From Patescibacteria group bacterium (GTDB lineage: Bacteria > Patescibacteriota > Doudnabacteria > UBA920 > O2-02-FULL-48-8): 64,000 nucleotides of DNA. The notes under the pieces are model-generated. The model searched no databases and was not told the DNA's origin. It saw nothing but the letters and a program-made list of their open reading frames with translations. The translations under genes were made by a program, and so were the position numbers. The DNA is taken from positions 173,186-237,185 of the forward strand of contig DASUKB010000001.1 in the NCBI GenBank assembly GCA_036278915.1. The letters run 5' to 3'. Below are positions 4,819 through 59,425 of this stretch, one piece after another; position 1 is the stretch's first letter; the number at the start of each line of letters is the position of its first letter.

Positions 4819-4899
4819 CACCCCCCGGCCTTCGGCCACACCCTCTTTAGTAAAGAGGGGGTGCGTACGCCAAGGGTTCGCGGGGGGAGTTCTAAAAAA
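4819..4899 (+). promoter_or_regulatory. leader element copy 3 (GGCC-TTC-GGCC hairpin, CCCTCTTTAG/TAAAGAGGGGG hairpin, GGGGGGAGTTCTAAAAAAATG)
   Basis: Shares hairpin + GGGGAGTTCTAAA architecture with five other sites. Confidence 0.5.
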
Positions 4900-6033: not shown

Positions 6034-6049
6034 GCTAATTAGACCGGTA

Positions 6050-8315: not shown

Positions 8316-9920
8316 ATGCCAAAAAAGCTTTACAAAAAAGTTTTACTTATAATCCTCGACGGGTTTGGCGTGGCTACAGCGGGCCGCGGCAACGCAGTGA
8401 CGCTGGCAAACCCGCCCAACCTCAATGATTTCGTCAACAAGTACGCGGCCACCACGCTGCAGGCATCTGGACCGGCCGTGGGTCTGCCCTGGGGCGAAAA
8501 CGGCAACTCTGAAGCCGGACACCTAAATATTGGCTCTGGCCGCATAGTCGGCCAGGATATGCCGCGCATCAACCTTGCCATAGAGGACCGATCATTTTTC
8601 AGCAACCCGTCGTTTATGGAAGCCATAGAGCACGCCAAAGCCAACAATTCCAATCTCCACCTTATGGGTATGGTGAGCCCGGGCGGCTTGCACAGCTTCG
8701 ATGAGCATCTGTATGCGCTCATTGGCCTGGCTGCGGAAGCTGGCATAGGCGACCGCACGTACGTGCATATGTTCACCGACGGCGAAGACAGCAAGGAAAC
8801 AGCATTGCAGGCTTTGGATAAATTGCAAAAACGCATGGACCGCATCCACGCCGGCAAAATTGCGACTATTATGGGGAGATTTTATGCCATGGATCGCGCG
8901 GATCATTGGAACCTGACAGAACAAGCTTACCGTTGCATGGTGTTTGCCGAAGGGCAGCAGGAAAAAAGTGCGCTGAATGCGCTCACCGAATACGCCAGCC
9001 AAAATATAAAAGACCATATGATACCGCCGACTGTGATTCTGCAAGCCGACGGCTCAGCCATCAAAATTACGGATGGTGACGCGCTCATACATTTCAATTA
9101 TCGGCCCGACCGCGCCATACAGCTGACCAAAGCCTTCACCGAGCAGCACCTCAAAAAATTCATCCAGCCGTATACACCGCTTAAGGACATTATAATGGTG
9201 ACGATGACCGAGTATATAGACGGGCTGAACGTAAAAATCGCATTCCCGCCGATTCCTTTGACCAATGGCTTGGCCGAAATGATAAGCAAGCGTGGGCTGC
9301 GGCAGTTCCACTGCGCTGAGTCTGAAAAATTCGCGCACGTTTCGATTTTTTTTGACGGCGGCATCCATCCGTTTCCGGGAGAAGATCGCGAGATCGTGAG
9401 TTCTCCAGCCAGCAATTACCAAAATTACGCCAACTCGCCGGAAATGTCGGCTTACCAGCTGACGGATATGCTCATCGGCAAGCTCGATCAGAACTATACA
9501 TTTTATGTCGTGAACTTTGCCAACACCGACATGGTCGGGCACACCGGCAATCCGATGGCCTGCATCCAGGCCGTGACTTCGGTGGATACGTGCTTGGGAA
9601 AGTTGGCGGCCAAATGCCTGCAGGAAGATATTTGCATGATCATCACAGCCGATCACGGAAATATTGAGGAAATTATAGACCACCGCTCCGGTAATGTTGA
9701 GACTGAACACTCGTCCAATCCGGTGCCGTTCATAATTATTGCAAATGATTTTGCGCGCAAGAATCCCAAAGGCGGCGGTATAGAGAGTTTGGCTGGAGTT
9801 TTGCCAGTGGGCGTACTTTCCGACGTTGCACCCACCGTGCTGGAACTGCTGGGTATCCCCAAGCCTTCGGAAATGACTGGAGTGAGTTTACTGGGACAAG
9901 TCCAGCCACAAGTAAAATAA
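8316..9920 (+). CDS. gpmI: 2,3-bisphosphoglycerate-independent phosphoglycerate mutase
   Basis: 534 aa. ILDGFG and GNSEAGHLNIGSGRIV metal-binding motifs of iPGM (alkaline-phosphatase superfamily). Confidence 0.9.
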   Translation: MPKKLYKKVLLIILDGFGVATAGRGNAVTLANPPNLNDFVNKYAATTLQASGPAVGLPWGENGNSEAGHLNIGSGRIVGQDMPRINLAIEDRSFFSNPSFMEAIEHAKANNSNLHLMGMVSPGGLHSFDEHLYALIGLAAEAGIGDRTYVHMFTDGEDSKETALQALDKLQKRMDRIHAGKIATIMGRFYAMDRADHWNLTEQAYRCMVFAEGQQEKSALNALTEYASQNIKDHMIPPTVILQADGSAIKITDGDALIHFNYRPDRAIQLTKAFTEQHLKKFIQPYTPLKDIIMVTMTEYIDGLNVKIAFPPIPLTNGLAEMISKRGLRQFHCAESEKFAHVSIFFDGGIHPFPGEDREIVSSPASNYQNYANSPEMSAYQLTDMLIGKLDQNYTFYVVNFANTDMVGHTGNPMACIQAVTSVDTCLGKLAAKCLQEDICMIITADHGNIEEIIDHRSGNVETEHSSNPVPFIIIANDFARKNPKGGGIESLAGVLPVGVLSDVAPTVLELLGIPKPSEMTGVSLLGQVQPQVK

Positions 9921-10004: not shown

Positions 10005-11690
10005 ATGAAAAAGCGCTGGGTGGTGAAAGAGAAACCAAACGAGATCCCAAATTTGCCAGAGTACGAAGGCCTGGTTTTGGGATTGCTGGCGGCAAGAGGG
10101 CTTACCACCAAAGAACAAATCGAAGATTTTTTAAATCCAGATTACAACAAACTGCATGACCCGTTTTTGTTCGCAGATATGCAAAAGATATGTGCGCGTA
10201 TTTTTGATGCCATAAAAAATCAGGAAAAAATTGTCATTTATTCTGACTACGATGCCGATGCCATAACCGCGCTTGCGGTAATGTACCTGGCGCTCAAAAA
10301 ATTGGGAGCAAATCTGGATTATTATATCCCGGACCGGTTTGCTGAAGGCTATGGCATGAATGTTGAGGCTGTCAAAAAACTTTGCGAAGACGGCGCCAAA
10401 ATCATAATCACTGTGGACTGCGGCATCAATGCGGTGGAAGAAACTAACATCGCGCAAAGTTTGGGGACGGATGTTATAATTACCGACCACCACGAGCTTA
10501 CTGACGAATTGCCGAAAGCGTTTGCAATCATAAATCCCAAGAATCCGAATGATAACTATCCATTTCGGTTTCTCACCGGCGTCGGAGTGGCGTTTAAAGT
10601 TGTGCAGGCTTTGTTTAGGGGTGAGATTCTTTCCGGATGGGAAAAGTGGCTTTTGGATTTGGTTGCAATCGGTACTGTGGCTGATTTGCAGCCGCTCACG
10701 GGTGAAAATCGAATTTTGGTCAGCTTTGGCCTGAAGGTTCTGCACAAAACCAAATGGGCTGGTTTGCGCACGCTTATAAAGCTTGCAGGAGTAGACAGCA
10801 AAATTCCTGATACTTATACACTCGGGTTCATAATCGCGCCGCGCATCAATGCGGCCGGCAGGATAAAACACGCAGATGTCGCATTTAAACTACTGGTTTG
10901 TGAGGACGAAGCAGAAGCGCAAACGTTGGCCGAGGAATTAAACCAGCTCAATACTCACCGCCAACAGCTGACCGAGCAGGTCCTCTCTGAAGCGCGCAGT
11001 CAGGTTGAATTGATAGAAAACAAGAAAGTTCTGCTCGCTGCAGGCGCTGACTGGCCCAAAGGCGTGGTTGGTCTGGTGGCCGGCAAATTGGTAGAGGAGT
11101 ATGGCCGACCAGTGCTGGTAATGGATCGGGGGGAATTGGTAGCCACGGGTTCTGCGCGTTCCGTGCGCAACTTTGATATTGTCGCGGCTCTCACTCACGC
11201 CAAGGATCTGCTCACCAAATACGGCGGGCATACGCAAGCTGCGGGATTCACGCTTGTCACCGAAAACATTCCAGCTTTGCATCAGAAATTGCTAGAGTAT
11301 GCCGAGACTTTGGACGAGGAAACCTTGTCGCCAGTTTTGGAAGCGGATGCAGAGCTTGCGCCTCTGGATTTAAATATGGAAAATTACGATTTGATTTCCA
11401 AATTTGCGCCGTTTGGGTATGGTAACCACAAACCGAAGTTTTTAATTTCGTCTGTTGAAGTTTTAGAAATTCGACTCGTGGGCAAAGAATCTCGCCACTT
11501 GAAACTGCGGTTGCGAGCCGCTGAGAAAGTTTTGGACGCCATTGGATTCAATCTGGGGTTTTGGGCAGGTTCCCTTGAGCCTGGGGGCAAAGTTGATCTA
11601 ATGTTTGAACTTGACTGCAACGAGTGGAATAACCAAAAGAATTTGGAGCTTAAAATTTTGGATCTAAGAAAAAATAATTTAAAATTATAA
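10005..11690 (+). CDS. recJ: single-stranded-DNA-specific exonuclease RecJ
   Basis: 561 aa. DHH family motifs (IYSDYDADAITA, ITDHHE) and DHHA1-like C-terminal region. Confidence 0.9.
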   Translation: MKKRWVVKEKPNEIPNLPEYEGLVLGLLAARGLTTKEQIEDFLNPDYNKLHDPFLFADMQKICARIFDAIKNQEKIVIYSDYDADAITALAVMYLALKKLGANLDYYIPDRFAEGYGMNVEAVKKLCEDGAKIIITVDCGINAVEETNIAQSLGTDVIITDHHELTDELPKAFAIINPKNPNDNYPFRFLTGVGVAFKVVQALFRGEILSGWEKWLLDLVAIGTVADLQPLTGENRILVSFGLKVLHKTKWAGLRTLIKLAGVDSKIPDTYTLGFIIAPRINAAGRIKHADVAFKLLVCEDEAEAQTLAEELNQLNTHRQQLTEQVLSEARSQVELIENKKVLLAAGADWPKGVVGLVAGKLVEEYGRPVLVMDRGELVATGSARSVRNFDIVAALTHAKDLLTKYGGHTQAAGFTLVTENIPALHQKLLEYAETLDEETLSPVLEADAELAPLDLNMENYDLISKFAPFGYGNHKPKFLISSVEVLEIRLVGKESRHLKLRLRAAEKVLDAIGFNLGFWAGSLEPGGKVDLMFELDCNEWNNQKNLELKILDLRKNNLKL

Positions 11691-14784: not shown

Positions 14785-15792
14785 ATGTTTCTATCTAGAA
14801 TTGGAATTGATTTGGGCACGGCCAACACTTTGGTTTATGTTCCCAAGCACGGCATCATCATCAACGAGCCCACAGTGGTGGCTATTTCCGTAGGCGATAA
14901 TAAAATTTTAGCCGTTGGCGCAGAAGCCAAAGAAATGATCGGCCGCACGCCAGACAATATAATCGCGCACCGGCCCATGAAGGACGGAGTCATTGCCGAC
15001 TACCGCGTCACAGAAGCCATGCTGCGCTATTTCATAAACAAAGCCGCAGGTTCGGTAAGATTCTTCCGGCCTGAGGTCATGATCTCCGTGCCGGGCGGAA
15101 TTACATCAACTGAACGCCGAGCTGTCATAGATGCTGCCACGCAAGCTGGAGCCAAATCTGCGTACGTCATCAAAGAAACCGTGGCCGCGGCAATCGGCGC
15201 CGGTATAGACATTGCCGCGCCCGCCGGTAACATGGTCATAGACATTGGCGGCGGTACCACCGATGTGGCCGTGCTGTCTTTGGGAGGCATAGTTACATCT
15301 ACGTCCGTGCGCGTGGCCGGCAACAAACTTGACGCAGCCATTGCCGAATACATTCGCAAAAAGCACGGGCTTTCTGTGGGCGACCGCACCGCGGAGGAAA
15401 TTAAGATTCAGATCGGGTCTGCTATACCCGTGGAAAAAGAAATCGCGCTTGAAATCCGCGGCCGCGATCTAGTCCATGGTCTGCCCAAAACCATCCAGGT
15501 CAAAACGAACGAAATAGTAGAAGCAATTTCTGAAGAGCTGCGCGAGATCGTAAAAGCGGTGCGCGCCGTGCTACAGGAGACGCCGCCGGAACTGGCTTCG
15601 GACATCATAGACAAAGGCATGGTCCTCACGGGCGGTTCGTCGCTTTTACGCAATTTGGATAAATACATCGGCCAGTCCACGGGCGTGCCTGCGTATGTTG
15701 CGGATGACGCGCTGCTCTGCGTTGCGCGCGGCACCGGCGCGGCGCTGGACAATTTGGAATCGTACAAAAAAAGCATTCTCGCGACGAAATAA
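14785..15792 (+). CDS. mreB: MreB/Mbl-family actin-like protein (paralog 1, not followed by mreCD)
   Basis: 335 aa. GIDLGTANTLVYV phosphate-1 motif, DIGGGTTDVAV phosphate-2. Confidence 0.9.
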   Translation: MFLSRIGIDLGTANTLVYVPKHGIIINEPTVVAISVGDNKILAVGAEAKEMIGRTPDNIIAHRPMKDGVIADYRVTEAMLRYFINKAAGSVRFFRPEVMISVPGGITSTERRAVIDAATQAGAKSAYVIKETVAAAIGAGIDIAAPAGNMVIDIGGGTTDVAVLSLGGIVTSTSVRVAGNKLDAAIAEYIRKKHGLSVGDRTAEEIKIQIGSAIPVEKEIALEIRGRDLVHGLPKTIQVKTNEIVEAISEELREIVKAVRAVLQETPPELASDIIDKGMVLTGGSSLLRNLDKYIGQSTGVPAYVADDALLCVARGTGAALDNLESYKKSILATK

Positions 15793-21362: not shown

Positions 21363-22424
21363 ATGCCACTGTTTGATTTCGTTTACGACAAATTCAGCAA
21401 AGATATAGGAATTGATTTGGGTACAGCCAATACTCTTGTCTATGTTAAAGGCCGCGGTATTGTTGTAAACGAACCGTCCGTGGTGGCCATAAACCAGAAG
21501 ACCAAGCAGATCTTGGCGATTGGAGATGATGCCAAACGCATGGTGGGCAGAACGCCTGCGCATATTGTGGCCCACCGGCCTTTGGTGGATGGTGTGATTT
21601 CTGACTTTGACATTACCGAACAAATGTTGCGCTATTTTATAGAAAAAGTTAGCCAGGCGACATTTGGCTTTTTGTCTCGTCCGCGCGTGGTAGTCGGCAT
21701 CCCTTCCGGAGTCACGGAAGTGGAAAAACGCGCGGTGCAGGATGCTACGCTAAATGCCGGCGCTCGTGCGGCATTTCTTATTGAAGAGCCTATGGCCGCA
21801 GCAATTGGAGCCAGACTTCCGGTTCAGGACCCTCAGGGCTGTTTTATCGTGGATATTGGCGGCGGGACTTCGGAGATTGCAGTCATCTCACTGGGTGGTA
21901 TTGTGGTGTCAAAAAGCATCCGCGTCGCCGGCGATGAGCTGAACGAAAACATTGTCCAATTTGCTCGGGACGAATATAACTTGCTTATCGGCGAGCGCAC
22001 GGCTGAAGACATTAAAATCCGCATTGGTTCGGCTGCGCCGCTCAAAGGTGAAAAGCAAAAAATGGCTATGCGCGGGCGTGATCTTATTTCTGGGTTACCC
22101 AAGGAAATTATGGTCACGGACGACCAGATCCGGCATGCTATTTCGCGTTCGGTCCGCTTGATCGTCAACAACATCAAAACTGCTGTTGAGGAATCTCCGC
22201 CGGAGCTGGTGGCAGACATCATGGACCGAGGCATTACTATTTCCGGCGGAGGCGCGCTCCTGCGGGGACTGGATAAACTTCTGGCACAGGAGACACAAAT
22301 GCCAATTACCGTGGCTGATGATCCGCTGACTGCCGTAGTGCGAGGCTGCGGCGTGATTTTGGAAGATCTAGAGGCGCTCAAAGACGTACTGGTACCCACC
22401 CAATTTGAACCAATTCCAAGATGA
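21363..22424 (+). CDS. mreB: rod shape-determining protein MreB (paralog 2, heads mreBCD-mrdA cluster)
   Basis: 353 aa. GIDLGTANTLVYV, DIGGGTSEIAV. Confidence 0.9.
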   Translation: MPLFDFVYDKFSKDIGIDLGTANTLVYVKGRGIVVNEPSVVAINQKTKQILAIGDDAKRMVGRTPAHIVAHRPLVDGVISDFDITEQMLRYFIEKVSQATFGFLSRPRVVVGIPSGVTEVEKRAVQDATLNAGARAAFLIEEPMAAAIGARLPVQDPQGCFIVDIGGGTSEIAVISLGGIVVSKSIRVAGDELNENIVQFARDEYNLLIGERTAEDIKIRIGSAAPLKGEKQKMAMRGRDLISGLPKEIMVTDDQIRHAISRSVRLIVNNIKTAVEESPPELVADIMDRGITISGGGALLRGLDKLLAQETQMPITVADDPLTAVVRGCGVILEDLEALKDVLVPTQFEPIPR

Positions 22425-34229: not shown

Positions 34230-34817
34230 GTGTGCTGGCAAAAAAGGACAAAACATCTGACAGAACAAGAGGCAATCAAAAAAATTGTGGCAGGAGACTC
34301 CGAAGCGTTTGGTGTCCTGTACGATATGTATATCGAACGCATTTATAGGTTCGTCTATTTCCGGACGCATCACAAACAGACCGCCGAAGACCTGACCAGC
34401 ATCGTGTTTACCAAAGCTTTCAGTAAGTTTGGAAGCTTTGATACCAGAGTAAGTTTCTCCACATGGATTTTCAGCATCGCCCGCAACACTTGTATAGATT
34501 TTTACCGGACAGCCAAGCCGGTAGCAGACTTGGAAACAGCGCCTGATGTGGCAGAACCTTCCAACCTGGCGCGGGATTACGAACTTCGGGAAAAAGTTCA
34601 GCAGGTCAAAGCCTACTTGGAGACGCTTGCGCCCGATCAGCGCGAACTGGTTATAATGCGCCTCTGGGAAGGATTTTCCTACGATGAGATTGCCCGCATC
34701 ACCGGCAAAAAAAGCGCTAATTTGCGCGTGACATTCAGCCGGATTATAGCCCGCATGCAGAAGGAAATTACATTTGCATTAATTTTGTTTGCAATTATTT
34801 TTAAGAAATATTTATGA
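34230..34817 (+). CDS. ECF-type sigma-70 family RNA polymerase sigma factor
   Basis: Region 2 (YDMYIERIYRFVYFRT...FSTWIFSIARNTCIDFYR) and region 4 HTH (ELVIMRLWEGFSYDEIARITGKK). GTG start. Confidence 0.8.
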   Translation: MCWQKRTKHLTEQEAIKKIVAGDSEAFGVLYDMYIERIYRFVYFRTHHKQTAEDLTSIVFTKAFSKFGSFDTRVSFSTWIFSIARNTCIDFYRTAKPVADLETAPDVAEPSNLARDYELREKVQQVKAYLETLAPDQRELVIMRLWEGFSYDEIARITGKKSANLRVTFSRIIARMQKEITFALILFAIIFKKYL

Positions 34818-36334: not shown

Positions 36335-36368
36335 GACAGAGCCTGATTCCAGGTCTGTTTTTTTTCTG
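36335..36368 (+). terminator. rho-independent terminator
   Basis: ACAGAGCCTG-ATTC-CAGGTCTGT + TTTTTTTT. Confidence 0.6.
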
Positions 36369-36432
36369 CTTGAAAATTGCCGCAAATTTTGTAAAGATAC
36401 TGGCAGACAACGAGGCAGGAGGAATTTAGGAC

Positions 36433-36993
36433 ATGAGCATTGCGCAGCCACTCAAGGAATCATACATCCCTCGAGCAACGGACTATATCGATTCGGTTGC
36501 TGATCCGATCGAGAAGTATCAGCTCGCAGTCGAACCTCTCATTGCAGAGAGGGAGCAGCTCAAACAGCGGCTCAAGCAAATTGAAAACGAAATCGAAAAG
36601 CACGCCGGCCTGCGACATAAGATTGGACGATTGGTCCGCCGGTTTGCGCGCTACGCCCAGCGGCGGAAAGATGATTTCGTCAATGGCGGAAAGCGGACAG
36701 TGAAAACTGGTTCAGGATCATTCGGGTGGCGATTGAACCCGAGTGATTCGCTTGTTTGTGATCCCGGTCTTGAGCATAAAGCCATAAAGCGGCTCATCGA
36801 GCTTGAACGATGGGATCTGCTCGATTGCCGACTACGCAAAGATCCTATCAAGGCGGCTTTGCAAAGCGGGGATTTGAGAAGCATTCCAGGTCTTTCTGTG
36901 ATCCGAAGCGAGCGTTTCCTTGTGGCCCCCTCGGGATTGTGGTCTGTTAGCCTTTTTGAGGACGGCCATATCAAGCTTCAAGGCGAACGCTAG
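36433..36993 (+). CDS. gam: phage Mu Gam-like host-nuclease inhibitor / Ku-like DNA-end-binding protein
   Basis: 186 aa. Segment RRKDDFVNGGKRTVKTGSGSFGWRLNPSD...LVAP parallels Mu Gam RDELTNGGKVKTANLVTGDVSWRVRPPS...IIP (recalled from memory). N-terminal coiled coil. Gene is GC-richer than flanks. Confidence 0.7.
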   Translation: MSIAQPLKESYIPRATDYIDSVADPIEKYQLAVEPLIAEREQLKQRLKQIENEIEKHAGLRHKIGRLVRRFARYAQRRKDDFVNGGKRTVKTGSGSFGWRLNPSDSLVCDPGLEHKAIKRLIELERWDLLDCRLRKDPIKAALQSGDLRSIPGLSVIRSERFLVAPSGLWSVSLFEDGHIKLQGER

Positions 36994-37008: not shown

Positions 37009-37044
37009 GGCCTTGCTGGGGCAATCCCGGCAAGGCTTTTTTTA
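37009..37044 (+). terminator. rho-independent terminator after gam-like gene
   Basis: GCCTTGC-TGGGGCAATCCCG-GCAAGGC + TTTTTTT. Confidence 0.65.
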
Positions 37045-38619: not shown

Positions 38620-38735
38620 ATTTAAGTGCGTTAATCGTTATTGGGCAGCGCGGCGCGTGGGGCGTTCGCGGCTTTCGGTTTGTGGACGTAAAACTTCAAC
38701 GTAAACCGATGCGCGCAGCGCTGCCGCTAAACGCG

Positions 38736-38915
38736 CTAGCGTTTTTTAGTTTTCGCATCGTGGATAAGTATACCACCAGCAACTCTTTTGAGCTGCAGGT
38801 ACTGGTGCTCATGCCAGCCAAACATCCTGACAAATTCCGCAGGCATTGCAATCACCAAAGTTTTCCCTGATCCCGTCTTGGTTAATTTACGTTTTGTGTT
38901 TGTTGGCCTTGCCAT
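38736..38915 (-). CDS. unannotated 59-aa SpoVT/AbrB-MazE-like DNA-binding protein (paralog of 1511-1678)
   Basis: MARPTNTKRKLTKTGSGKTLVIAMPAEFVRMFGWHEHQYLQLKRVAGGILIHDAKTKKR aligns to TKAKITKIGGHSSSIVIPVRIMKDLHW...VKRVARGVKITDARSKKRRQ. Sits between the two GT-C genes on the same strand. Confidence 0.5.
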   Translation of the reverse strand: MARPTNTKRKLTKTGSGKTLVIAMPAEFVRMFGWHEHQYLQLKRVAGGILIHDAKTKKR

Positions 38916-38930
38916 AAATTATATTGTTTA

Positions 38931-38954
38931 AGTATTGAGTTTAGTATTGAGTTA
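38931..38954. repeat. tandem 12-mer AGTATTGAGTT(T/A) x2 upstream of AbrB-like paralog
   Basis: Read directly. Lies between the GT-C stop (38975) and the small ORF start (38915) on the minus strand. Confidence 0.3.
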
Positions 38955-38974
38955 TAACTCGCCCCCGACGTTGT

Positions 38975-45373: not shown

Positions 45374-45467
45374 AGGAGAATTTTAACAAAATTTATATAA
45401 AAAACAAACCATAATTAAAAAGAATCGGCAAGCCCCGGAGGGCCTGCCGCAGGTATGTGGCTGCGTG

Positions 45468-45746
45468 CTAGTGCACGTTGCGTGAGAAGACAGAATCCCG
45501 GGCTTTCGCCATCGGGCTGCCATGGCGAGGCGGAAGCTCTTCGAGATCGCCGTCGTCGAGCGCGTTTTCGATCTGATGCTGGCCGCGGATGAGGAGATCC
45601 TGACTGCTGGATGTGCCGTCTGGATTCTCAAAAGTGCAGGTGATATTCTCGCCATCGATCTTGGTGATGCGAAAGATAGGTGAGAGACCCGGGTTTTGAT
45701 TCATCACCTGGTATCTGCTCCCGACCACTACCGCTTTCCAAGGCAT
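45468..45746 (-). CDS. hypothetical 92-aa protein in GC-elevated patch
   Basis: Strong SD AAGGAGGGG 5 nt upstream of ATG (minus strand). Composition clearly GC-richer than surrounding genes. Confidence 0.45.
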   Translation of the reverse strand: MPWKAVVVGSRYQVMNQNPGLSPIFRITKIDGENITCTFENPDGTSSSQDLLIRGQHQIENALDDGDLEELPPRHGSPMAKARDSVFSRNVH

Positions 45747-45861
45747 TTAGCCCCTCCTTTTGGTTCATTCAAAATCAGCGACTTAAATTCTATATTAAAT
45801 GAAGCAAAAAAACAAGATAGGCTGGTACTTGTCAAAAGGTCTAATTTGACTTAAGCTTATG

Positions 45862-46020
45862 CCAAAGGCCGCCAGGGGGGATCGATCGCAACCTTACGTG
45901 CTGGGAAACATGATAAGGTGCTCTGGCGGCCTCCACACTTACTTTCGGAGGAATCTACTTGGCCATTAGGCCGAACAACACAAAAGAACGGTTTCCACCT
46001 CGGAACCCGTTTTTGTTTTT
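45862..46020 (+). ncRNA. candidate structured RNA (~155 nt) ending in rho-independent terminator; unclassified
   Basis: Long-range stem GGCCGCCAG...CTGGCGGCC, inner stems CCTTA/TAAGG, CCTCC/GGAGG, GGCC-ATTA-GGCC. Terminator ACGGTTTCC-ACCTC-GGAACCCGT + TTTTGTTTTTG. Confidence 0.25.
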
Positions 46021-46107
46021 GTATAAAATGTGTATACTCCAGCAATAATTTAGGTGTTACACACTGAATGGATGATAATTCATTAATTAAATTTCTGAAA
46101 AAGTGAT

Positions 46108-46914
46108 ATGACTATAAAAAAATTAGCGCCAATTGTTGTGATAGTGGTAATTGCAATAGCAATTATTGGAGGATTAAATATAAATAAAAAAGGCCAGATC
46201 AGTACGAACCATGCCCAAAAACAACAACAACAAGATATTTACAAGGCCGCTGAACAAGCTCAATTACCACAACTCCAAGCAAAAACTAATATTATTCTTG
46301 CCGATGCCAAAGCTTCCTCTGATCTAAAGTTTGTTAAAGATGATACTACATCGGATGGAAAATCTGTAAAATGGTATTCATATACCGATAAATATGGAAG
46401 AAAAGTAAGCTATGCCTTGGGAGATGATGGTATCATTTGGGACTCAACAGCTAGTAGTTTAATCCAAGGAAATACAATCATCAATTCAGATGCTAACTCT
46501 GGTGTACCCTTGGGTTGGAAAATCTACTCGAATCCAGCTGGCTATCAGGTAGCATACCCGCCGGATTGGTTTATTTCTACCGTTACTCAGCCAAAAGCGG
46601 ATGATCTAAGCGAGCTCGTAATTCAACCGTATGAACCAGATTACGCCGAATCTCCTTACACGTTCCAAATATTCGTGAATTTAGAGCCATTAGAATATTT
46701 TACCAACCAACTTGGAGACAATAAAAACAATCTAAAAGATATTCAACTGAATGGGTATGAAGCCAAACAATTGTACTTAAATGGTTCTCCATCGGATTAT
46801 TATATTGAGAGAAATGGAAATACTTTTGTAGTAAGCTCAAATTATATAGGTGGAGATAACATCTCAAAAGAGGATACAGATAAAGTATTATCGAGTTTCA
46901 AATTCACACAGTAA
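46108..46914 (+). CDS. secreted/membrane-anchored WKxY...SFKF domain protein (paralog C, single domain)
   Basis: TM anchor IVVIVVIAIAIIGGL. Motif GWKIYSNPAGYQVAYPPDW. C-terminus LSSFKFTQ. Confidence 0.6.
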   Translation: MTIKKLAPIVVIVVIAIAIIGGLNINKKGQISTNHAQKQQQQDIYKAAEQAQLPQLQAKTNIILADAKASSDLKFVKDDTTSDGKSVKWYSYTDKYGRKVSYALGDDGIIWDSTASSLIQGNTIINSDANSGVPLGWKIYSNPAGYQVAYPPDWFISTVTQPKADDLSELVIQPYEPDYAESPYTFQIFVNLEPLEYFTNQLGDNKNNLKDIQLNGYEAKQLYLNGSPSDYYIERNGNTFVVSSNYIGGDNISKEDTDKVLSSFKFTQ

Positions 46915-51451: not shown

Positions 51452-51841
51452 GTGGATTTGTCAAAAAAGATATCTGTATGTTATAATTCGGTTACGTTTG
51501 AAAGCCAATTTGATAAAAAAATCAAAGAAATTACAATTGTGGACAAAATTATAAGTCCCGAAATCCGAAGTTTTCTGGAAAAACTCCTAAGCGACAAAAA
51601 AATCAACGCCACGGGAGAATTGAAGGACCAAATGGTTTCGGATCTCAACGACCGCTTGGAAGTCCGATTCAACCAACTCGTCATAGAGCACCTTTCTATA
51701 CAGGAACTGGATGCCTTAGCAGAGGTGGCCGAGGAGGGACCCGAAGCCGTACAACAATTTTTGCGCAAAAATATCAAAAACATTGATGCGCTTTTTGCCG
51801 AGGCTATGCAGCAATTTGCGCAAGCTTATCTAGAGGGATAA
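51452..51841 (+). CDS. small acidic helical protein (chaperone-like?), translationally coupled to giant protein; true start probably 51539 or 51632
   Basis: Stop TAA abuts ATG of 51842 (taaATG). GAAGGA SD 4 nt before ATG 51632. Confidence 0.45.
   Translation: MDLSKKISVCYNSVTFESQFDKKIKEITIVDKIISPEIRSFLEKLLSDKKINATGELKDQMVSDLNDRLEVRFNQLVIEHLSIQELDALAEVAEEGPEAVQQFLRKNIKNIDALFAEAMQQFAQAYLEG
51458..51487 (+). promoter_or_regulatory. sigma70-like promoter TTGTCA-18-TGtTATAAT heading the giant-protein/T4CP module
   Basis: ORF-track GTG start 51452 lies inside this promoter, so translation probably starts downstream (GTG 51539 or SD-preceded ATG 51632). Confidence 0.4.
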
Positions 51842-54800
51842 ATGTCCGAACAAGAACCATTTAACGGCATGAAAATTCCAGGATACGAACAATCTCCTCA
51901 AGCAGAGGAGCCAGTTCAACATCCAGAAGAAAAACCACAGCGGACATATAATCGGGTAGATCTTTACCAAACGGGCTTCCGTAACGGGTTAAGCGCGGAA
52001 ACAATGGATCAATATCCGGATAACCACGAACTTGCAAAATTAATTGGCACTAAAATTGAAAACCGTCAAAAAAATTCTGATTCTGAAAAATTAAAAGATA
52101 AAGTCCGAGATATTTTACATTCACAGATGAAGCGAGATGGCCACACCAAGCCAATCCAACCTTCCGGCAATCGGGTTGATATGAAATTGCATACTGTTAC
52201 AGAAGATCAGATTTCGGGTTTAGATGAAACAGAGAGAGCAGCGCTTGAGGGTAAATTTACAAAACTTCCAAGCATCCAGAGGAATTGGAAGGGTGACCCG
52301 AAAATATATAAGCAATATCCGAATTTCGGCTTGGATAAATATGAAGAAAATCAGCTGACTTCACGGTTGAAACACCAGTCCGAGCCAACTACTCCTGGCA
52401 TTCCTCCTGTACCAGATGAAAACATCCGGGATCGTGAACCTATGACCGAACGACAAGCTGAACGTATCTTTTTGGGCAAAACGCAAGAGGAGCGGGAAGC
52501 GGAAAATCTTTTCCGTGCCCAAGAATCAAAGCCGGAGAAACAGCCCACGGCAAACCATGATTTGCTTATGCGCGCGGGCAGAAAATTGTACCTGGATTTG
52601 GACTTGCCTGAAAGATTTGCGGAACTGGATGCGATGGATGACGCAGAACTCAAGACTTTGCTTTTGACTTACTACGGCAACGATGCCGAGTATGTCCAAG
52701 CCTTGTCTGATGCTGAAAAGTTATCGGATGACGACGTCAAAATACTAGGCTTAGAACTTAATCGTTCTCATGGATCTGCGAGTTTGGAAAAAGAAAAAAA
52801 AGAAGGAGGTCGGCGCAAACTTTTTGCCTCGGAACTCTCTGACTACATAGATGCCTACGCCAGGCAGGAGGCTAAGCGGCAATGGCAGAAATTATACGAA
52901 AAATCCGGATTCTTCCGCCGCGTCCAGCTTCACTTGGGCGAAAACTATTATGTAGACGTAAAACTTTACAACGAGATCCGGGAGAATATTGAAAAAAATA
53001 AAACCCTCACAACTTTGCTCAAGACCCGGATAGCAGGAAAGGACGTGGAGATTGGCCGCACGGACGATGAAAGTTATCGCCTGCTGGACGCAATTTTGGA
53101 AGCATACGAAAACGATTTAGGTCTGAAGGAAAACGAAAAGGCCAAGAAAGTGGAGGATGAAAAGTTTGATTCAGGACTCTCCGTTATCATTGTGCAAGCA
53201 GTCAAGCACGACTGGGACCGCAAACAATTCAACGAAGAATTAAATTTGCTTTTGGGCAGCACATATAGATCGCAAAACGCCAAGGCTTCCATTCACGAAG
53301 GCCATGTGTTTGCGTTTTCCGATATTTACCAGTATGTGGAGCAGTACAAATCCCAGATTAAAGATCTGGTGGAAAAGTACGGGCCGGAGGCTGGCGAGCA
53401 CATCAATGGCCTTATGGGCGTGGATTTGTATCTTGGGAAAATTGATGCGGACATCCGCAAGGACCCCAGAAAGGCTGCCTGGATCGATAAATTGCCCGCA
53501 GGACTTCAGAGCAGCAGAGTTTTTGGTCTCATAGCCAACCCGGCTGTGTTTGGGTCGGCTACAGCCATGATTGGGCGAGGCTTTGCCAAGGGTAAATTGA
53601 GTAAAGCACTTACTACAGCCACGGCAGCCGCCATGCTGCCTACTACTGCAAGTCTCTGGGTACCTATGGTTGCCGCTGCTGCCGTGGGTGGATTATATAC
53701 GGGCTTGCGGCGCAATAAAGAAATTTCGGAAGACTGGAATTCGGAATTAAAGGAGCAGGCCATGGGCCGCGTGGCAGGCGGAGCGCGCAATGAAAAAATC
53801 CGGAAGTTTATGCTGGATATGGAAGATGCAAACGTTTCGGCGCAGAAACTTTCGGCAATTACAAACGCGGACGATGCTTCCAAAAGATTAGTGGCAGAAA
53901 TTTACGCAAGGCTAGATATAGAAAACGCCGGAGGTCAGGAAATGTTCCGCGCATCCGAGAAAAACGCGGATCTTTCCAGCCGCCGCGCGGATATGAACAA
54001 ATTATATTTGGCACTGCGGCAGTTGGAAGGAAAACCCGGCTTTGCCAGAACGGACCTGGCAGCTCTTATAGACGAACAAACAAAAAGCTTCCGCACTGAA
54101 ATGAAAAGCCGCGAAACTGCACTAAGAGATTTTCGCGCGGGCCAGAATTTGCGCGCCGCGGTCCAGGGCGCACTCACAAGCATTGCGGGGTCCATCATAA
54201 CGCAAGAAGCTATTTATTGGGGCAAAGAAGGGCTGAATTTGCTGGGTTCAAATTTCACGCCTGGCGATACCCTGGCGCATATGGGCGGCAGGAAGCTTAT
54301 AACTGGCGAGTGGCATAAGCATTTCTTGGGTCCGCTTTCGCACGAAAACGTTATAAGTTTTTCCCATGGCGTGGAAGTACATCTCGACTCCCCGGAAGGT
54401 TTTGGCATAGAACCCAATTCCGATGGCACTATAAATTACCTTTACCATGGCGAGCATATAGCAGATCATTTGGCGTTGGCACAAGACGGACATGGCCTGT
54501 CGGATACAGCCAAAAAGATTCTGACCGACAAAGGTTTTCATATCCATGAAAGCGCTGCTCGCACTGTGATTTCGCAAACCACGGCTCATGAAATCGTTCG
54601 CGGACAGATGCCGCAGGCAACTTTGGAAAATCTCAAACAAAAGTACGCGGATGCCAATTGGGGCGTGCATCACCGGCTGGACTGGCACCACCAAGGACCA
54701 CAGGAAAGTTCGTTCTTCAACAAAATTATAGAACACCCGGGCAAAGAGCAGATGGAATATCTAAATTTTGACGCGAACGGACATGTGGTGGTGGACGCTC

Positions 54801-56032
54801 ATAAAATTGTAGAAAACTTTGCGCAAAATTTACGCGACGACAATAAAGATTTGTTTATCAATCCTGACGGGTCTGTGGATGCCAAAATGCGTGGGCTTTA
54901 TAAGCAACTGTTCGAGTGGCAGCAGAAAGGCGAGTTGGGCAAGCATATCCACGCGGTGGTTTTGCCAGACAAGCATTCAAGCTTGAGCGCCGTATTTGTC
55001 GGTAACGCCGACGGAAAAATTACATTGTCCGAATCTTTGTCCAAACTTGTGAATCCGGATCATTTGGCGGACGGGAAACTTCCATACACCATAGAACTGC
55101 GCTTGGATGACGGCCACGTGCTGGCTACGGCTTCCGGCGGCAATGGAATGTTTGAACAAAGCGTTTCTGAAATAACTAAACACGTGCCTCATACTCTGGA
55201 AATTTACGATACATCTATCATACCGCCTGTGAGTGGGTACATGAATCCATTTTTGGCTACTCCTATGGCCAAACGCTACCCGCTCAAAACCGCGAGCGTG
55301 GGAGGGGGCAGAACAGTTGCGGCAGAACCGATTCTTGTGCCAAGTCAATCGTCAGAAATTGAGATTCCGCAAGCAGAATCGGAAACCGCAGCGACAAAAG
55401 ATTTGGGTGAAACCCTGCACGCAGAACCTATAAAGTCTGGGGTACGAATAGTAGACGAAGCGCCTTTGCGCGCGGCTGAACCAGAGCAAATTGACCTGCC
55501 GGAGGATATGCACATTCAGCCGACAGAGCACATTGAGCGCGGCAAAGATAAAAAACGCAAAATCTTTTTGCGTGGAGAAAGAATTAAATCCAATTCGGGG
55601 ACAATTTATGAAGCAATTATCGATGCCCTTAAGGTCTTGCCGCACATCCGCACCAAGGCCAATTTGGAAAAACTACTTACCGCGCAATTCAGAATTTTGG
55701 CCTCAAAAGACGGTTATGATTCTACAAAACAAAATTTCGGAAACTATTTAAAAAGAGATTATGGCCTTGAACCGGACGACTTCAAAGTTAGCCGCAGCAA
55801 AGATCATTTCTACGTTAAACTGGATGCCAAGGCCGAATTAGTGCCGCTGCTGCGGACATTCCAAGCCAACAAAGATGTGCAGGAAAAATTGTACTATGAG
55901 TTCAAGAATATGCAGTCCGACGTCAAAGAGCATAAATTGCCGAGATTTCGGGTTAATCTTTTGGAGAATATGATACGGAAGATGTCGGGCCGGAGTACGA
56001 ATGAAGACGAAGACGGTAAACCCAAACCTTGA
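51842..56032 (+). CDS. giant 1396-aa protein: charged/low-complexity N-terminal half, central TM hairpin, His-rich C-terminal half; hypothetical
   Basis: Single uninterrupted ORF. Hydrophobic segments VFGLIANPAVFGSATAMIGRGF and AMLPTTASLWVPMVAAAAVGGLY near residues 556-630. No recognisable enzymatic motif. Confidence 0.7.
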   Translation: MSEQEPFNGMKIPGYEQSPQAEEPVQHPEEKPQRTYNRVDLYQTGFRNGLSAETMDQYPDNHELAKLIGTKIENRQKNSDSEKLKDKVRDILHSQMKRDGHTKPIQPSGNRVDMKLHTVTEDQISGLDETERAALEGKFTKLPSIQRNWKGDPKIYKQYPNFGLDKYEENQLTSRLKHQSEPTTPGIPPVPDENIRDREPMTERQAERIFLGKTQEEREAENLFRAQESKPEKQPTANHDLLMRAGRKLYLDLDLPERFAELDAMDDAELKTLLLTYYGNDAEYVQALSDAEKLSDDDVKILGLELNRSHGSASLEKEKKEGGRRKLFASELSDYIDAYARQEAKRQWQKLYEKSGFFRRVQLHLGENYYVDVKLYNEIRENIEKNKTLTTLLKTRIAGKDVEIGRTDDESYRLLDAILEAYENDLGLKENEKAKKVEDEKFDSGLSVIIVQAVKHDWDRKQFNEELNLLLGSTYRSQNAKASIHEGHVFAFSDIYQYVEQYKSQIKDLVEKYGPEAGEHINGLMGVDLYLGKIDADIRKDPRKAAWIDKLPAGLQSSRVFGLIANPAVFGSATAMIGRGFAKGKLSKALTTATAAAMLPTTASLWVPMVAAAAVGGLYTGLRRNKEISEDWNSELKEQAMGRVAGGARNEKIRKFMLDMEDANVSAQKLSAITNADDASKRLVAEIYARLDIENAGGQEMFRASEKNADLSSRRADMNKLYLALRQLEGKPGFARTDLAALIDEQTKSFRTEMKSRETALRDFRAGQNLRAAVQGALTSIAGSIITQEAIYWGKEGLNLLGSNFTPGDTLAHMGGRKLITGEWHKHFLGPLSHENVISFSHGVEVHLDSPEGFGIEPNSDGTINYLYHGEHIADHLALAQDGHGLSDTAKKILTDKGFHIHESAARTVISQTTAHEIVRGQMPQATLENLKQKYADANWGVHHRLDWHHQGPQESSFFNKIIEHPGKEQMEYLNFDANGHVVVDAHKIVENFAQNLRDDNKDLFINPDGSVDAKMRGLYKQLFEWQQKGELGKHIHAVVLPDKHSSLSAVFVGNADGKITLSESLSKLVNPDHLADGKLPYTIELRLDDGHVLATASGGNGMFEQSVSEITKHVPHTLEIYDTSIIPPVSGYMNPFLATPMAKRYPLKTASVGGGRTVAAEPILVPSQSSEIEIPQAESETAATKDLGETLHAEPIKSGVRIVDEAPLRAAEPEQIDLPEDMHIQPTEHIERGKDKKRKIFLRGERIKSNSGTIYEAIIDALKVLPHIRTKANLEKLLTAQFRILASKDGYDSTKQNFGNYLKRDYGLEPDDFKVSRSKDHFYVKLDAKAELVPLLRTFQANKDVQEKLYYEFKNMQSDVKEHKLPRFRVNLLENMIRKMSGRSTNEDEDGKPKP

Positions 56033-56065
56033 TTTAAACTTAAAATTAATCTATACTTAGCTGCT

Positions 56066-56404
56066 ATGGAAAAGATTGAATCAAACAATTTTAAGTCTCC
56101 TGAAGTTCCCAAAGATTCGCAAGAATTTTTGGAACAGGTTGAGCATGCCGCGCGCGCTCGCAAGCCGGAGAATTCCGCTCTGAGCGAAAATGGGGTGGAA
56201 AGCGATACGCGCGATCTTCACCGGAGCATCCGAACGCAGAATGAAATAACAGCGGCCGAAATCCCGCAAGAGCTTGACTCACAACAGAAAACTCGAGTTC
56301 TCAACGAATTGCTTAAGCCGACAGATGACGAAATCAGCCATCCGACGCTTGAACCCTACGATGAAATAGAAAATATCCTCAAAAAAGCCATTCCTGGCGA
56401 ATAA
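56066..56404 (+). CDS. acidic disordered 112-aa protein, hypothetical
   Basis: ORF between giant protein and ATPase. Glu/Asp/Ser-rich. Confidence 0.4.
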   Translation: MEKIESNNFKSPEVPKDSQEFLEQVEHAARARKPENSALSENGVESDTRDLHRSIRTQNEITAAEIPQELDSQQKTRVLNELLKPTDDEISHPTLEPYDEIENILKKAIPGE

Positions 56405-56438
56405 GTTTTCCAAGTTGTAAACGCAAACAAAAACCTAA

Positions 56439-58964
56439 ATGAACAGCACAGTCGCAATATTTTTTTGGATCATACTCGTAGCCGTCCTCGGACTGGTTGG
56501 TTTGATGTTGTATTTTTTCCTCCATGATTATTTGCGCAAAAGCACATGGGGCCCGCGGATTTTGAACTCAGTGTTTTTGGAAGTCACAGTCCCAAAAGAA
56601 AATTCCGATCCAAGCCAGGAGGCGGCCAAAGAGGAAAAAGACATCATCGCCATCGCGGAGCAGTTTTTTACAACCATAGCCCACGCGGAGGACAAGCGCG
56701 ATATCCAGCATTTTTTAAACATCAACGATTATATTTCATTTGAGATTGCGGCCACAGGCAAAAAGATTTCATTTTATATAAATGTGCCGCGCAAACTTCA
56801 GCCGCTCGTGGAAAAGCAGCTCCACGCCCAGTATCCCAAAGCGCAAATTGATCAGGTTAAGCCTTATAACATCTTCCACAAACACTCAAGCCAGGCCGCA
56901 GCCGAACTGGTTTTGCAAAAATCGCACATCTATCCGCTCCGGACGTACAAAGCCATGGAAACTGATCCCTTGAATGCCCTTACAAACAGTTTGTCCAAAC
57001 TTATGGAAGATGAAGGCGCGGCTATCCAGCTGCTTATTTCTCCGGCAGGGTCTGAATGGCAAAGCAAACCCCGCCATTTGGCGCTCGAGATCCAGCAGGG
57101 CAAAAATCCATCGGATGTAACGGCTACTATGAGCGAAAAATTTCTACGCGGTTCAGGTAAATTCGCAGGCGAACTTTTGAGCGAGGCGTTTGGCGCCAAG
57201 AAAAACCCAAACAAATTTGACCCGTCGGGAATGGACAAACCGATAAATTTAACGCCGATGCAGCAGGAGATCGTGAAAAAATTTGAAGAGAAAGCTTCGC
57301 GCACCGGGTACAAATTCAATTTGCGCGTGGTGGCATCTGCTCCGGACGCGCAATCGGCCGAGCTGCATTTGAAAAATATTACAGCAAGTTTTATGCAGTA
57401 CAGCATGCCGCCGTTCAATGGCTTCAAGGTCAAATCCATAAACACCAAACGAATCGTGACTGACTATGTATTCCGCGTGTTCCGCAATACTTCAAACGTA
57501 CTCAACACCGAGGAGATTTCATCGATCTGGCATCCGCCGACTCGGTTTACCGAAACGCCGAATATAAAATGGCTGACCTCAAAAAAAGCACCTCCGCCGC
57601 AGGATTTGCCGCCGGAAGGAGTTATCTTGGGCGAAAGCATCTATCGCGGAGTCAAACAAACCGTCAGGATTGCGCGCGATGACCGCCGCAGGCACCAGTA
57701 CATAATTGGCCGCACCGGCACTGGCAAAACCGAGCTTATGAAAAATATGGCTATCCAGGACATTCGCGCAGGCGAAGGCGTAGCCATAGTGGATCCGCAC
57801 GGCGATCTGGTGGAAGATGTTTTACAGTATGTGCCCAAAGAACGCGCCGGCGACGTTATCCTTTTTGAGCCGTCCGACATGGACCGGCCGCTGGGACTCA
57901 ATATGCTGGAGATTTCTGACCCATCCCAAAAAGATTTTGCGGTGCAGGAGATGATCTCAATTTTTATGAAGCTGTTTCCGCCGGAAATGATCGGACCGAT
58001 GTTTGAGCACAATATGCGAAATGTAATGCTGACGCTTATGCAAGACCACCAGTATCCAGGCACGATTGCCGACATTCCGCGCATGTTTACCGACACGGAT
58101 TTTCAAAAATACAAAGTTTCAAAAGTTTCAGATCCGATAGTGCGCAGTTTTTGGGAAAAAGAAATGGCCAAAACTTCGGACTTCCATAAATCCGAAATGC
58201 TGGGGTATCTTATTTCCAAAGTCGGTCGTTTTGTGGAGAACGAAATGATGCGCAATATAATCGGCCAGCCGCATTCATCATTTGATTTCCGAAAAGTTAT
58301 GGACGAAGGCAAAATTCTGCTTATAAATCTTTCAAAGGGCAAAACCGGCGAGGTGAACGCCAAACTTTTGGGACTTATAATCGTCTCCAAGCTTCAGATG
58401 GCGGCGCTGTCGCGCGCGGACGTAGCGGAAGACTCACGAAGAGATTTCTATTTGTATGTTGATGAGTTCCAGAATTTCGTCACGGACAGTTTCGCTACTA
58501 TCCTTTCGGAAGCGCGCAAATACAGGTTGAATTTAATAATGGCCCACCAGTTTATTTCTCAGTTGTCCGCCGAAAAAGAAGGTTCGTCTGGCCTGGATAC
58601 CTCTATGCGTGACGCTGTGTTTGGCAATGCGGGGACTATGGTCTGCTTCCGCATTGGCGTGGATGATGCCGAAATTATGGCCAAAGAATTTGCGCCGGTG
58701 TTCAATGAGTTTGACGTCATCAACATCGACCGGTTCAACGCCTGCGTTAAACTTATGATCGCGGGCACGGCCTCCAGGCCTTTCAATATGCACACGTTCC
58801 CCAAACCGCAGGATGCCAATCCGGAGTCGGCAAAGATTATTCGCGGCATGTCGAGACTGGCATTTGGCCGATCTCGCGCGGACGTGGAAAAAGACATTTT
58901 GGAGCGCACTAAGTTGGGGAGTCCGGAAAAGAGCGGCCCAGCCGCTGTGGAGCGAACACTATAG
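56439..58964 (+). CDS. type IV coupling-protein-like ATPase (TraD/TrwB/VirD4 family, FtsK-HerA superfamily) with N-terminal TM and ~390-aa unique N-domain
   Basis: TM IFFWIILVAVLGLVGLMLYFFL. Walker A GRTGTGKT about 25 aa upstream of IVDPHGD (TrwB has GATGTGKS...IVDPNGD). Walker B FYLYVDEF. ARKYRLNLIMAHQFISQL (T4CP Q-x-x-SQL motif). Confidence 0.65.
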   Translation: MNSTVAIFFWIILVAVLGLVGLMLYFFLHDYLRKSTWGPRILNSVFLEVTVPKENSDPSQEAAKEEKDIIAIAEQFFTTIAHAEDKRDIQHFLNINDYISFEIAATGKKISFYINVPRKLQPLVEKQLHAQYPKAQIDQVKPYNIFHKHSSQAAAELVLQKSHIYPLRTYKAMETDPLNALTNSLSKLMEDEGAAIQLLISPAGSEWQSKPRHLALEIQQGKNPSDVTATMSEKFLRGSGKFAGELLSEAFGAKKNPNKFDPSGMDKPINLTPMQQEIVKKFEEKASRTGYKFNLRVVASAPDAQSAELHLKNITASFMQYSMPPFNGFKVKSINTKRIVTDYVFRVFRNTSNVLNTEEISSIWHPPTRFTETPNIKWLTSKKAPPPQDLPPEGVILGESIYRGVKQTVRIARDDRRRHQYIIGRTGTGKTELMKNMAIQDIRAGEGVAIVDPHGDLVEDVLQYVPKERAGDVILFEPSDMDRPLGLNMLEISDPSQKDFAVQEMISIFMKLFPPEMIGPMFEHNMRNVMLTLMQDHQYPGTIADIPRMFTDTDFQKYKVSKVSDPIVRSFWEKEMAKTSDFHKSEMLGYLISKVGRFVENEMMRNIIGQPHSSFDFRKVMDEGKILLINLSKGKTGEVNAKLLGLIIVSKLQMAALSRADVAEDSRRDFYLYVDEFQNFVTDSFATILSEARKYRLNLIMAHQFISQLSAEKEGSSGLDTSMRDAVFGNAGTMVCFRIGVDDAEIMAKEFAPVFNEFDVINIDRFNACVKLMIAGTASRPFNMHTFPKPQDANPESAKIIRGMSRLAFGRSRADVEKDILERTKLGSPEKSGPAAVERTL

Positions 58965-58965
58965 T

Positions 58966-59014
58966 AAAAATTGATCTAATTTCTAAAATTTAGGTCAATT
59001 AAAAATTATAAATT
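58966..59014 (+). promoter_or_regulatory. conserved AT-rich upstream module copy 3 (palindrome CTAAA-A-TTTAG + TCAATTAAAAATTATAAATT)
   Basis: Aligned to 2451-2518 and 14730-14784. Confidence 0.45.
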
Positions 59015-59425
59015 ATGAAGAAGCTTAATCCTAAAGATAACGCCGCTCATCTGTTTTGCCTGTTTCTGGCAGAGGAAATGCGAAAACGCACGATTTCGCT
59101 TGGTCAGGCCAAGGAAATGGCGCGCGCCGTAGTGGCTCACAAAAATCTTGTCGATAACGAAGAGCATATGTTGCGGCTGGTTATCGAACTTTCCAAAGAT
59201 TTCCCGCAACTCAAGAATTTTGAAAAAAAACTTGCGGAATATATTGAGAAGACAACACGCTCCAAACAAGAACTTTTGATTACAGAGTTTGTCTCGCAAA
59301 TTATGGATTCCGACCCAAACCAGGCCATGAGAATTCTGGATGACGCTATAGAGTCGTCTTACAATTTGGACGCTCTCAAAGCTAAGTATCCAGAACTTGG
59401 ACAATTTTTAAACCAAAACCAATGA
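59015..59425 (+). CDS. hypothetical helical 136-aa protein
   Basis: ORF directly after module copy 3. No family recognised. Confidence 0.5.
   Translation: MKKLNPKDNAAHLFCLFLAEEMRKRTISLGQAKEMARAVVAHKNLVDNEEHMLRLVIELSKDFPQLKNFEKKLAEYIEKTTRSKQELLITEFVSQIMDSDPNQAMRILDDAIESSYNLDALKAKYPELGQFLNQNQ

Follow-up and report, generated by a model that had tools for sequence, protein, structure and literature searches.

A divergent Mu Gam family gene at a fixed chromosomal locus in Saccharibacteria-related Patescibacteria

The Gam protein of phage Mu is a dimer that binds the ends of double-stranded DNA and blocks the loading of RecBCD (PMC12407980). It is treated in the literature as a dsDNA-end-binding homologue of Ku (PMC1378119; PMC12407980), and a passage in PMC8987985, citing Bhattacharyya 2018, states that Gam can mediate NHEJ of host DNA. 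The Gam protein of phage lambda shares the name and the inhibition of RecBCD, but it is unrelated, being a DNA mimic that binds RecBCD itself (PMC12407980). Homologues of Gam in bacteria are usually dismissed as prophage leftovers (PMC1378119). Gam proteins are in use as reporters of double-strand breaks and in base editors (PMC3809393, PMC5576876).

The gene described here is located at positions 36433..36993 (forward strand) of a 64,000-nucleotide stretch of DNA from a Patescibacteria group bacterium (to be referred to as the window). It begins with an ATG codon in the list of open reading frames and encodes a protein of 186 amino acids. A Shine-Dalgarno motif, AGGAGG, is found at 36417..36422 (forward strand), 10 nt 5' of the ATG. 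The gene is real, and its position is the one given in the initial annotation. The protein is identical in sequence to HEX5429683.1 at NCBI, which is labelled 'host-nuclease inhibitor Gam family protein [Patescibacteria group bacterium]'. The NCBI name bears out the earlier suggestion that the DNA belongs to a reduced-genome organism. Patescibacteria are ultra-small and have very little DNA-repair equipment. In a survey of the literature, Gam was not met with in Patescibacteria or Saccharibacteria. The assignment to Gam is already public in the NCBI annotation, and the gene is not a new kind of system.

Several profiles support the Gam assignment, which had initially been made from the sequence by eye. 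The Pfam model PF07352 matches the window protein with an E value of 4e-7 and a score of 30.5 bits (cutoff 28.3), over residues 42-166 and positions 24-149 of the 149 in the profile. This pass is marginal, about 2 bits over the curated gathering score. The orthologs P0002-P0005 are below the cutoff, with scores of 13-25 bits for PF07352, and Gam is still their top match. PHROG 491 ('Mu Gam-like end protection') matches the window protein at E=3e-6. An exhaustive phmmer search with the window protein, through 1.84 billion sequences that represent clusters of about 15 billion proteins, gave 35 matches at E<=1e-3, and 31 of the 33 full-length matches that were aligned also match PF07352. The profile of this 33-sequence family alignment finds PDB entry 2P2U ('Host-nuclease inhibitor protein Gam, putative') with an E value of 5.8e-24 along 155 residues; no other solved structure was reached from the family of the window protein. 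Nothing relevant was found among PDB sequences by phmmer with the window protein alone or with a profile of its subclade only, and a word-indexed homolog search with the single window protein returned only the protein itself.

For comparison with Mu Gam, a reference sequence was used that agrees at every residue with the gam gene of the phage Mu record (AF083977, 5801-6322; 100% identity). With hhalign, the profile of the five-member subclade that includes the window protein matches Mu Gam with 93.7% probability (E=1.9e-7, 148 columns), and columns 14-165 of the profile are aligned to residues 8-167 of Mu Gam, nearly the full length. The BLASTP match between the window protein and Mu Gam is weak, with about 24% identity over 109 residues (E=0.004). 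Weak secondary matches were observed to Siphovirus Gp157 (PF05565) and PHROG 253, with E values of 8.7e-4 and 1.6e-3, respectively, both of which are Gam-related phage families. The score for PF05565, 19.8 bits, is below its cutoff of 28.6, and the Gam model is clearly the better fit. An identity as RecN, the sole NCBIfam match, was rejected as spurious, based on coiled-coil similarity. Judged from these sequence comparisons, the window protein does belong to the Mu Gam family, as a divergent member. Because its margin over the PF07352 cutoff is 2 bits and its four closest relatives are sub-cutoff, the subclade is an outlying branch of Gam, and its biochemistry may have drifted.

In the alignment of 33 family sequences, two residues, G95 and E160, never vary, and three others, W99, F162 and P166, come close to this (window numbering). 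All five residues are present in the window protein, each opposite the corresponding Mu Gam residue (G, W, E, F and P, respectively). Within the subclade (n=5), G95, E160 and P166 are kept in every member, W99 is replaced by Phe in P0004 alone, and F162 is replaced by Leu in P0002 alone. The Gam motif that had been proposed for this protein was right in its WRLNP segment, and the segment before it reads NGGK-RT-VKT, with two residues rather than one in the middle. The terminal 'IP' of the proposed motif (S-I-P, residues 150-152) was misplaced, as in the profile alignment E-D-F-S-I-I-P of Mu Gam faces S-E-R-F-L-V-A-P, which contains E160, F162 and P166.

The structure of the window protein was predicted with AF2. 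Prediction from the single sequence gave a pLDDT of 49 and was unusable, and a monomer model based on the alignment was used instead (pLDDT 94.4, pTM 0.72). This model has a long N-terminal helical region, residues 11-82 (helices 11-56 and 58-82), and a C-terminal alpha/beta domain. The long helix is in accord with the N-terminal coiled coil that had been noted. The net charge of the window protein is +8, with values of +4 to +12 for the other members of the subclade, and a positive charge would be compatible with DNA binding. A Foldseek search of the PDB with the pLDDT-94 model retrieved neither 2P2U nor Ku, and Foldseek gave no more than weak, unnamed viral matches. Ku is also absent from the Pfam matches of the window protein at E<=10 and from the members of the family alignment, and no Ku chain is found in the PDB profile search at E<=1. 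The Ku-like character that had been proposed for the protein is therefore not borne out by Pfam, by the PDB profile search or by Foldseek.

The Gam-like gene is surrounded by housekeeping genes. About 50 proteins of the window were scanned with Pfam, and they include glycolysis enzymes, RecJ, RNase H, MurA, two MreB proteins, MreC, MreD, PBP2, clamp-loader subunits, RRF, RseP, several aminoacyl-tRNA synthetases, Ham1, MurF, FtsQ, an ECF sigma factor, two PMT_2 glycosyltransferases, GT2, GT4, L21, RecR, DnaB, CorA and a T4SS coupling protein. No integrase, capsid, transposase or other phage protein, and no Ku, LigD or ligase gene, is present among these proteins, consistent with the description of the gene as solitary. 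Phage genes are lacking over the 36 kb on its left and the 27 kb on its right; no Mu transposase A/B, GemA, Mor or portal genes were found in the window, and no ligase, Ku, LigD or nuclease partner adjoins the gene. A positive control is provided by a distant Gam (P0037, L003), whose gene belongs to a typical Mu-like prophage that also encodes MuA, a MuB-like ATPase, GemA, Gp27 and a Mu portal. As the Mu context is recognised there, it would have been recognised in the window if present. A repeat search around the Gam-like gene found no flanking direct or inverted repeats and no att- or TSD-like repeats, and Rfam finds only a tRNA-Gln.

The locus was compared in four genomes, the window and three contigs with orthologs, L007 (P0003, an uncultured Candidatus Saccharibacteria bacterium in GTDB), L008 (P0004, a Logan assembly) and L010 (P0002, an NCBI MAG labelled Candidatus Doudnabacteria). 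The slot and orientation of the gene are the same in all four, with FtsQ upstream and a convergent PMT_2 pair directly after the gene. The PMT_2 pair is part of a conserved block that continues with a 125-aa gene, GT2, GT4 and DUF192. The neighbouring proteins are 40-78% identical across the four genomes, and the Gam-like orthologs 26-41%. Since the slot is the same while the neighbours have diverged to this extent, the gene was in place before the lineages split. On this evidence, the Gam-like gene is an old host gene kept by vertical descent, and a prophage remnant or recent island is largely excluded. The suggestion that it is domesticated thus gains strong support from the conserved position of such divergent orthologs.

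Conservation of the locus rests on few genomes, because the subclade consists of only five sequences found among the 1.84 billion cluster representatives. A scan of a genome collection with the window protein found nothing, and a scan with the A4 alignment found only the known Saccharibacteria contig. Scans of metagenomes and of viral collections for subclade relatives found nothing, and tblastn against 50,697 phage records gave no match.

Upstream of the gene, an ECF sigma factor is encoded at 34230-34817 and is followed by a 502-aa protein without a family match. The pair had been described as sigma and anti-sigma factors. The sigma factor is confirmed, and the 'anti-sigma' designation rests on a start/stop overlap and a membrane segment recognised by eye. 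The pair is located upstream of the Gam-like gene in three of the four genomes, and in L010 an amino-acid kinase gene and a HAD hydrolase gene stand in its place. The idea that the gene works together with the ECF sigma pair was considered and rejected, as the pair is missing in L010, which has the closest ortholog, a terminator lies between the units, and the conserved -35-like element resembles a housekeeping one rather than an ECF one. The neighbourhood is not conserved, so it implies no functional connection.

In L007, the Gam-like gene is closely preceded by an extra 129-aa ORF (9519-9908) with its own promoter-like sequence and closely followed by a TPR gene (10700-11452). Together with the replacement of the ECF pair in L010, these ORFs suggest that the junctions around the gene tolerate small insertions. 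In the window, a 59-aa ORF at 38736-38915 (reverse strand), AbrB/SpoVT-like by eye and with no Pfam, NCBIfam or PADLOC match, sits in a 355-bp gap (38620-38974) between the two PMT_2 genes. These genes abut or overlap in L007, L008 and L010, and the ORF in the gap is therefore an insertion specific to the window.

The Gam-like gene has its own set of putative expression signals. An intrinsic-terminator-like hairpin with a T-run is found upstream at 36335..36365 (forward strand), with its stem at 36341-36354, the tail CTGTTTTTTT and the T-run extending to 36365. This hairpin would terminate the unit of the ECF sigma and 502-aa genes and insulate that of the Gam-like gene. It is followed by a promoter-like element at 36368..36397 (forward strand), in which a -35-like GCTTGAAA (36368-36375) is separated by a 16-nt spacer from a weak -10-like TAAAGA (36392-36397). 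The element is not called by a consensus promoter scan, and a promoter function is suggested by its conservation. A strong intrinsic-terminator-like hairpin is located downstream at 37009..37044 (forward strand), where it separates the Gam-like gene from the convergent PMT_2 gene, with a 13-bp stem (37009-37037) containing 8 G-C pairs and then a T-run. Both of the terminators that had been noted around the gene thus correspond to hairpins with T-runs.

The same layout is found in the window, L007, L008 and L010: a hairpin terminator, the -35-like element, GGAGG, an ORF of 186-191 aa and another hairpin terminator. The sequence GCTTGAAA or GCTTGCAA is kept directly 5' of all four orthologs. A hairpin with a T-run is also present 5' of the orthologs in L007, L008 and L010, as are GGAGG 5' of the start codons and a strong hairpin immediately 3' of the stop codons. 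The Gam-like gene is therefore predicted to be monocistronic, with its own terminators and promoter-like element.

The gene had been pointed out as part of a GC-elevated patch. Its GC content is indeed as stated, at 52.4%, and the adjacent genes are at 45.7-49.9%, not in the low 40s, with a window mean of 47.1%. The gene ranks third among 54 genes in GC content (z=1.4) and is at the 92nd percentile of sliding windows of the same size. Its GC3 is ordinary, at 0.545 (rank 22 of 54, z=0.34), and the excess is located at codon position 1 (z=2.1). The orthologs also have GC contents 4-10 points above their surroundings, and GC3 is ordinary in the L007 ortholog as well (z=0.04). As an excess at codon position 1 with ordinary GC3 reflects amino-acid composition, the elevated GC is due to a protein rich in Arg, Ala, Gly and Glu and not to foreign codon usage. 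With normal GC3, and with flanking genes above the low 40s, the patch loses its value as a mark of foreign origin.

The window holds far stronger compositional outliers elsewhere, at 4861-7087 and 46108-46914. The former (forward strand) contains two low-GC genes with PsbP-like domains (GC 0.40, GC3 0.32-0.37), which separate GAPDH from phosphoglycerate kinase in a row of genes that are otherwise glycolytic. The latter (forward strand) is a 268-aa ORF with no Pfam, NCBIfam or PADLOC match, the strongest compositional outlier of the window (GC 0.359, GC3 0.286). It is preceded by a gap of about 730 bp (45374-46107) between RecR and DnaB that has no ORF of at least 100 aa. The RecR-DnaB interval of L010 contains different small ORFs, and this spot looks variable and possibly acquired. 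A cluster at 51452-59425 consists of a 1396-aa protein without a Pfam match, small unannotated ORFs and an 841-aa VirD4/TrwB-type T4SS coupling protein (56439-58964), and is probably part of the Patescibacteria type IV secretion system of PMC12102498. In addition, two full-length MreB paralogs (14785-15792 and 21363-22424) are encoded together with MreC, MreD and a PBP2-type transpeptidase in this reduced-genome Patescibacterium.

The Gam-like gene diverges faster than every one of its neighbours. Between the window and L007, the Gam-like proteins are 26.5% identical, versus 44-78% for the neighbours. The tree of the four Gam-like proteins is ((window,L010),(L007,L008)), with 37.5% identity between the window and L010 and 41.4% between L007 and L008. 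In comparison, the neighbours place the window closest to L007, with 50% versus 36-39% identity for FtsQ, 56% versus 38-40% for DUF192, and 78% versus 71% for the aaRS. This incongruence, observed with four taxa, could be due to rate variation, to diversifying selection, or to the exchange of old alleles by homologous recombination. Exchange by recombination is plausible because Saccharibacteria are naturally competent (PMC10633639). The fast divergence and the incongruent tree are more in keeping with a role in conflict than with one in core repair. Estimates of dN/dS were rejected as uninformative at 26-41% protein identity.

The observations are best explained, with a fair measure of confidence, by a divergent Mu Gam family (PF07352) gene that was captured long ago by a Saccharibacteria-related Patescibacteria lineage, is now an ordinary, independently transcribed chromosomal gene, and encodes a probable DNA-end binder. 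By homology with Mu Gam, the protein would most likely dimerise via its long N-terminal helices and use its C-terminal alpha/beta domain to clamp linear double-stranded DNA at the ends. Such clamping would block the loading of exonucleases, and the protein could also hold ends for ligation by a housekeeping ligase. Its role in the cell may be the protection of break ends, end joining, or the handling of incoming or foreign linear DNA. The same biochemistry could also serve a different purpose, as a conflict gene that acts on foreign linear DNA (phage, conjugative or transforming) or against a nuclease or defence system, and that evolves rapidly under diversifying selection with alleles exchanged between strains. 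The Gam-like gene is the fastest-evolving of its block, and its tree joins the window with L010 where the neighbours join it with L007. The natural competence of Saccharibacteria makes allele replacement at conserved flanks feasible (PMC10633639), end-binding Gam proteins are known in the phage-defence interplay with RecBCD and Gabija (PMC12407980), and the T4SS coupling-protein cluster is located 15-20 kb away. However, the neighbours are cell-wall and glycosylation housekeeping genes with no defence island, and rate variation alone could mimic the incongruence among four taxa at 26-41% identity. Moreover, no defence model of PADLOC matches the Gam-like protein or the unannotated neighbours; with PADLOC-DB v2, there is no match for the window protein (P0001), P0002 or P0004, and P0003 has only a coiled-coil-level match to LmuB (E=0.003). 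A conflict gene is the main rival explanation, though an unlikely one. Similarly tentative is a joint reading in which a domesticated Gam serves as a host end-handling factor, either as a stand-in for Ku where repair equipment is minimal or for incoming linear DNA in naturally competent cells, and occurs as two old allele classes (the window/L010 type and the L007/L008 type) that are under diversifying selection and swapped by transformation.

Two further explanations were considered. One is that the ORF persists as a decaying, function-less relic in which DNA-end binding is gone. The very fast divergence, the sub-threshold Pfam scores of four of the five subclade members and the extreme rarity of the subclade in databases could be read in this way. 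The ORF is nevertheless intact in all four full-length orthologs, at 186-191 aa, with its promoter-like element, Shine-Dalgarno site and terminators conserved, a confident predicted fold, and G95, E160 and P166 in all five subclade members, W99 and F162 each being changed in one. Reduced genomes rarely keep useless genes over such divergence, and the relic is regarded as improbable. The other is a decayed Mu-like prophage remnant or 'moron', or a recently acquired GC-rich islet, and we give it very little credence. The same position in four genomes, with neighbours 40-78% identical, means that any acquisition predates their split. Phage genes are lacking over the 36 kb on the left and the 27 kb on the right, the search for direct or inverted repeats beside the gene found none, and the phage and viral collections searched yielded no subclade relatives. 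These points stand against a GC content 5 points above the window mean, with the orthologs 4-10 points above their surroundings. The GC3 values of the gene and its L007 ortholog are unremarkable (z=0.34 and 0.04, respectively), and the excess is at codon position 1. Other points in favor are the self-contained promoter-gene-terminator cassette, which is like that of phage morons, the view in the literature that bacterial Gam orthologues go back to prophage insertions (PMC1378119), and another solitary Patescibacteria Gam, P0036 (L001), that looks recently acquired. Recent acquisition and prophage decay are largely excluded for the gene in the window.

Under the preferred reading, an anciently captured Gam that is now a host gene, a Gam-family gene is stably inherited and apparently separately transcribed in ultra-small bacteria. 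If end binding has been kept, the gene would show clearly how a phage anti-nuclease protein can be taken over for the handling of host DNA ends, and its product would be a candidate for a minimal Ku-like factor of the Candidate Phyla Radiation. The subclade is also a source of highly divergent Gam variants. New here are the fixed chromosomal locus in a small Saccharibacteria-related lineage, the conserved layout, apparently monocistronic, and the fast, incongruent evolution; the GC patch as evidence of foreign origin and the association with the ECF sigma factor have been removed. The advance is contextual and evolutionary and not mechanistic, because the protein was already annotated as Gam at NCBI and we infer its function.

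The mechanism proposed for the window protein is Ku-like, but a relationship to Ku was not reproduced here, and, in contrast to Ku/LigD NHEJ, no LigD adjoins the gene. Two other Gam proteins, P0036 (L001) and P0038 (L006), are also encoded by stand-alone genes among housekeeping genes, on contigs resembling those of reduced-genome bacteria. They are canonical Gam proteins, with PF07352 scores of 114 and 56 bits, respectively, and their loci are unrelated to that of the window; they are separate captures and not orthologs of the window gene. P0036 comes from a MAG named Patescibacteria by NCBI, and its gene (L001 10001-10600, on a 963-kb contig) has two-component, T2SSE and CCA-adding-enzyme genes around it. 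Its strongly deviating GC3 (0.76, compared to a neighbour mean of 0.46; z=3.8) suggests that this Gam gene was captured recently and independently.

The window subclade differs from other Gam proteins in a C-terminal tail of about 20 residues (167-186) that is conserved within the subclade and aligns poorly elsewhere. The window protein belongs to the same family as Mu Gam (174 aa, PF07352) by profile and has a similar length. The two proteins share the G...W-R-x-x-P and E-x-F-x-x-x-P signatures, and the long N-terminal helix followed by an alpha/beta domain that is predicted for the window protein would be a further likeness. The window gene, however, is located outside a Mu-like early operon or any prophage, at a fixed locus in four Patescibacteria genomes.
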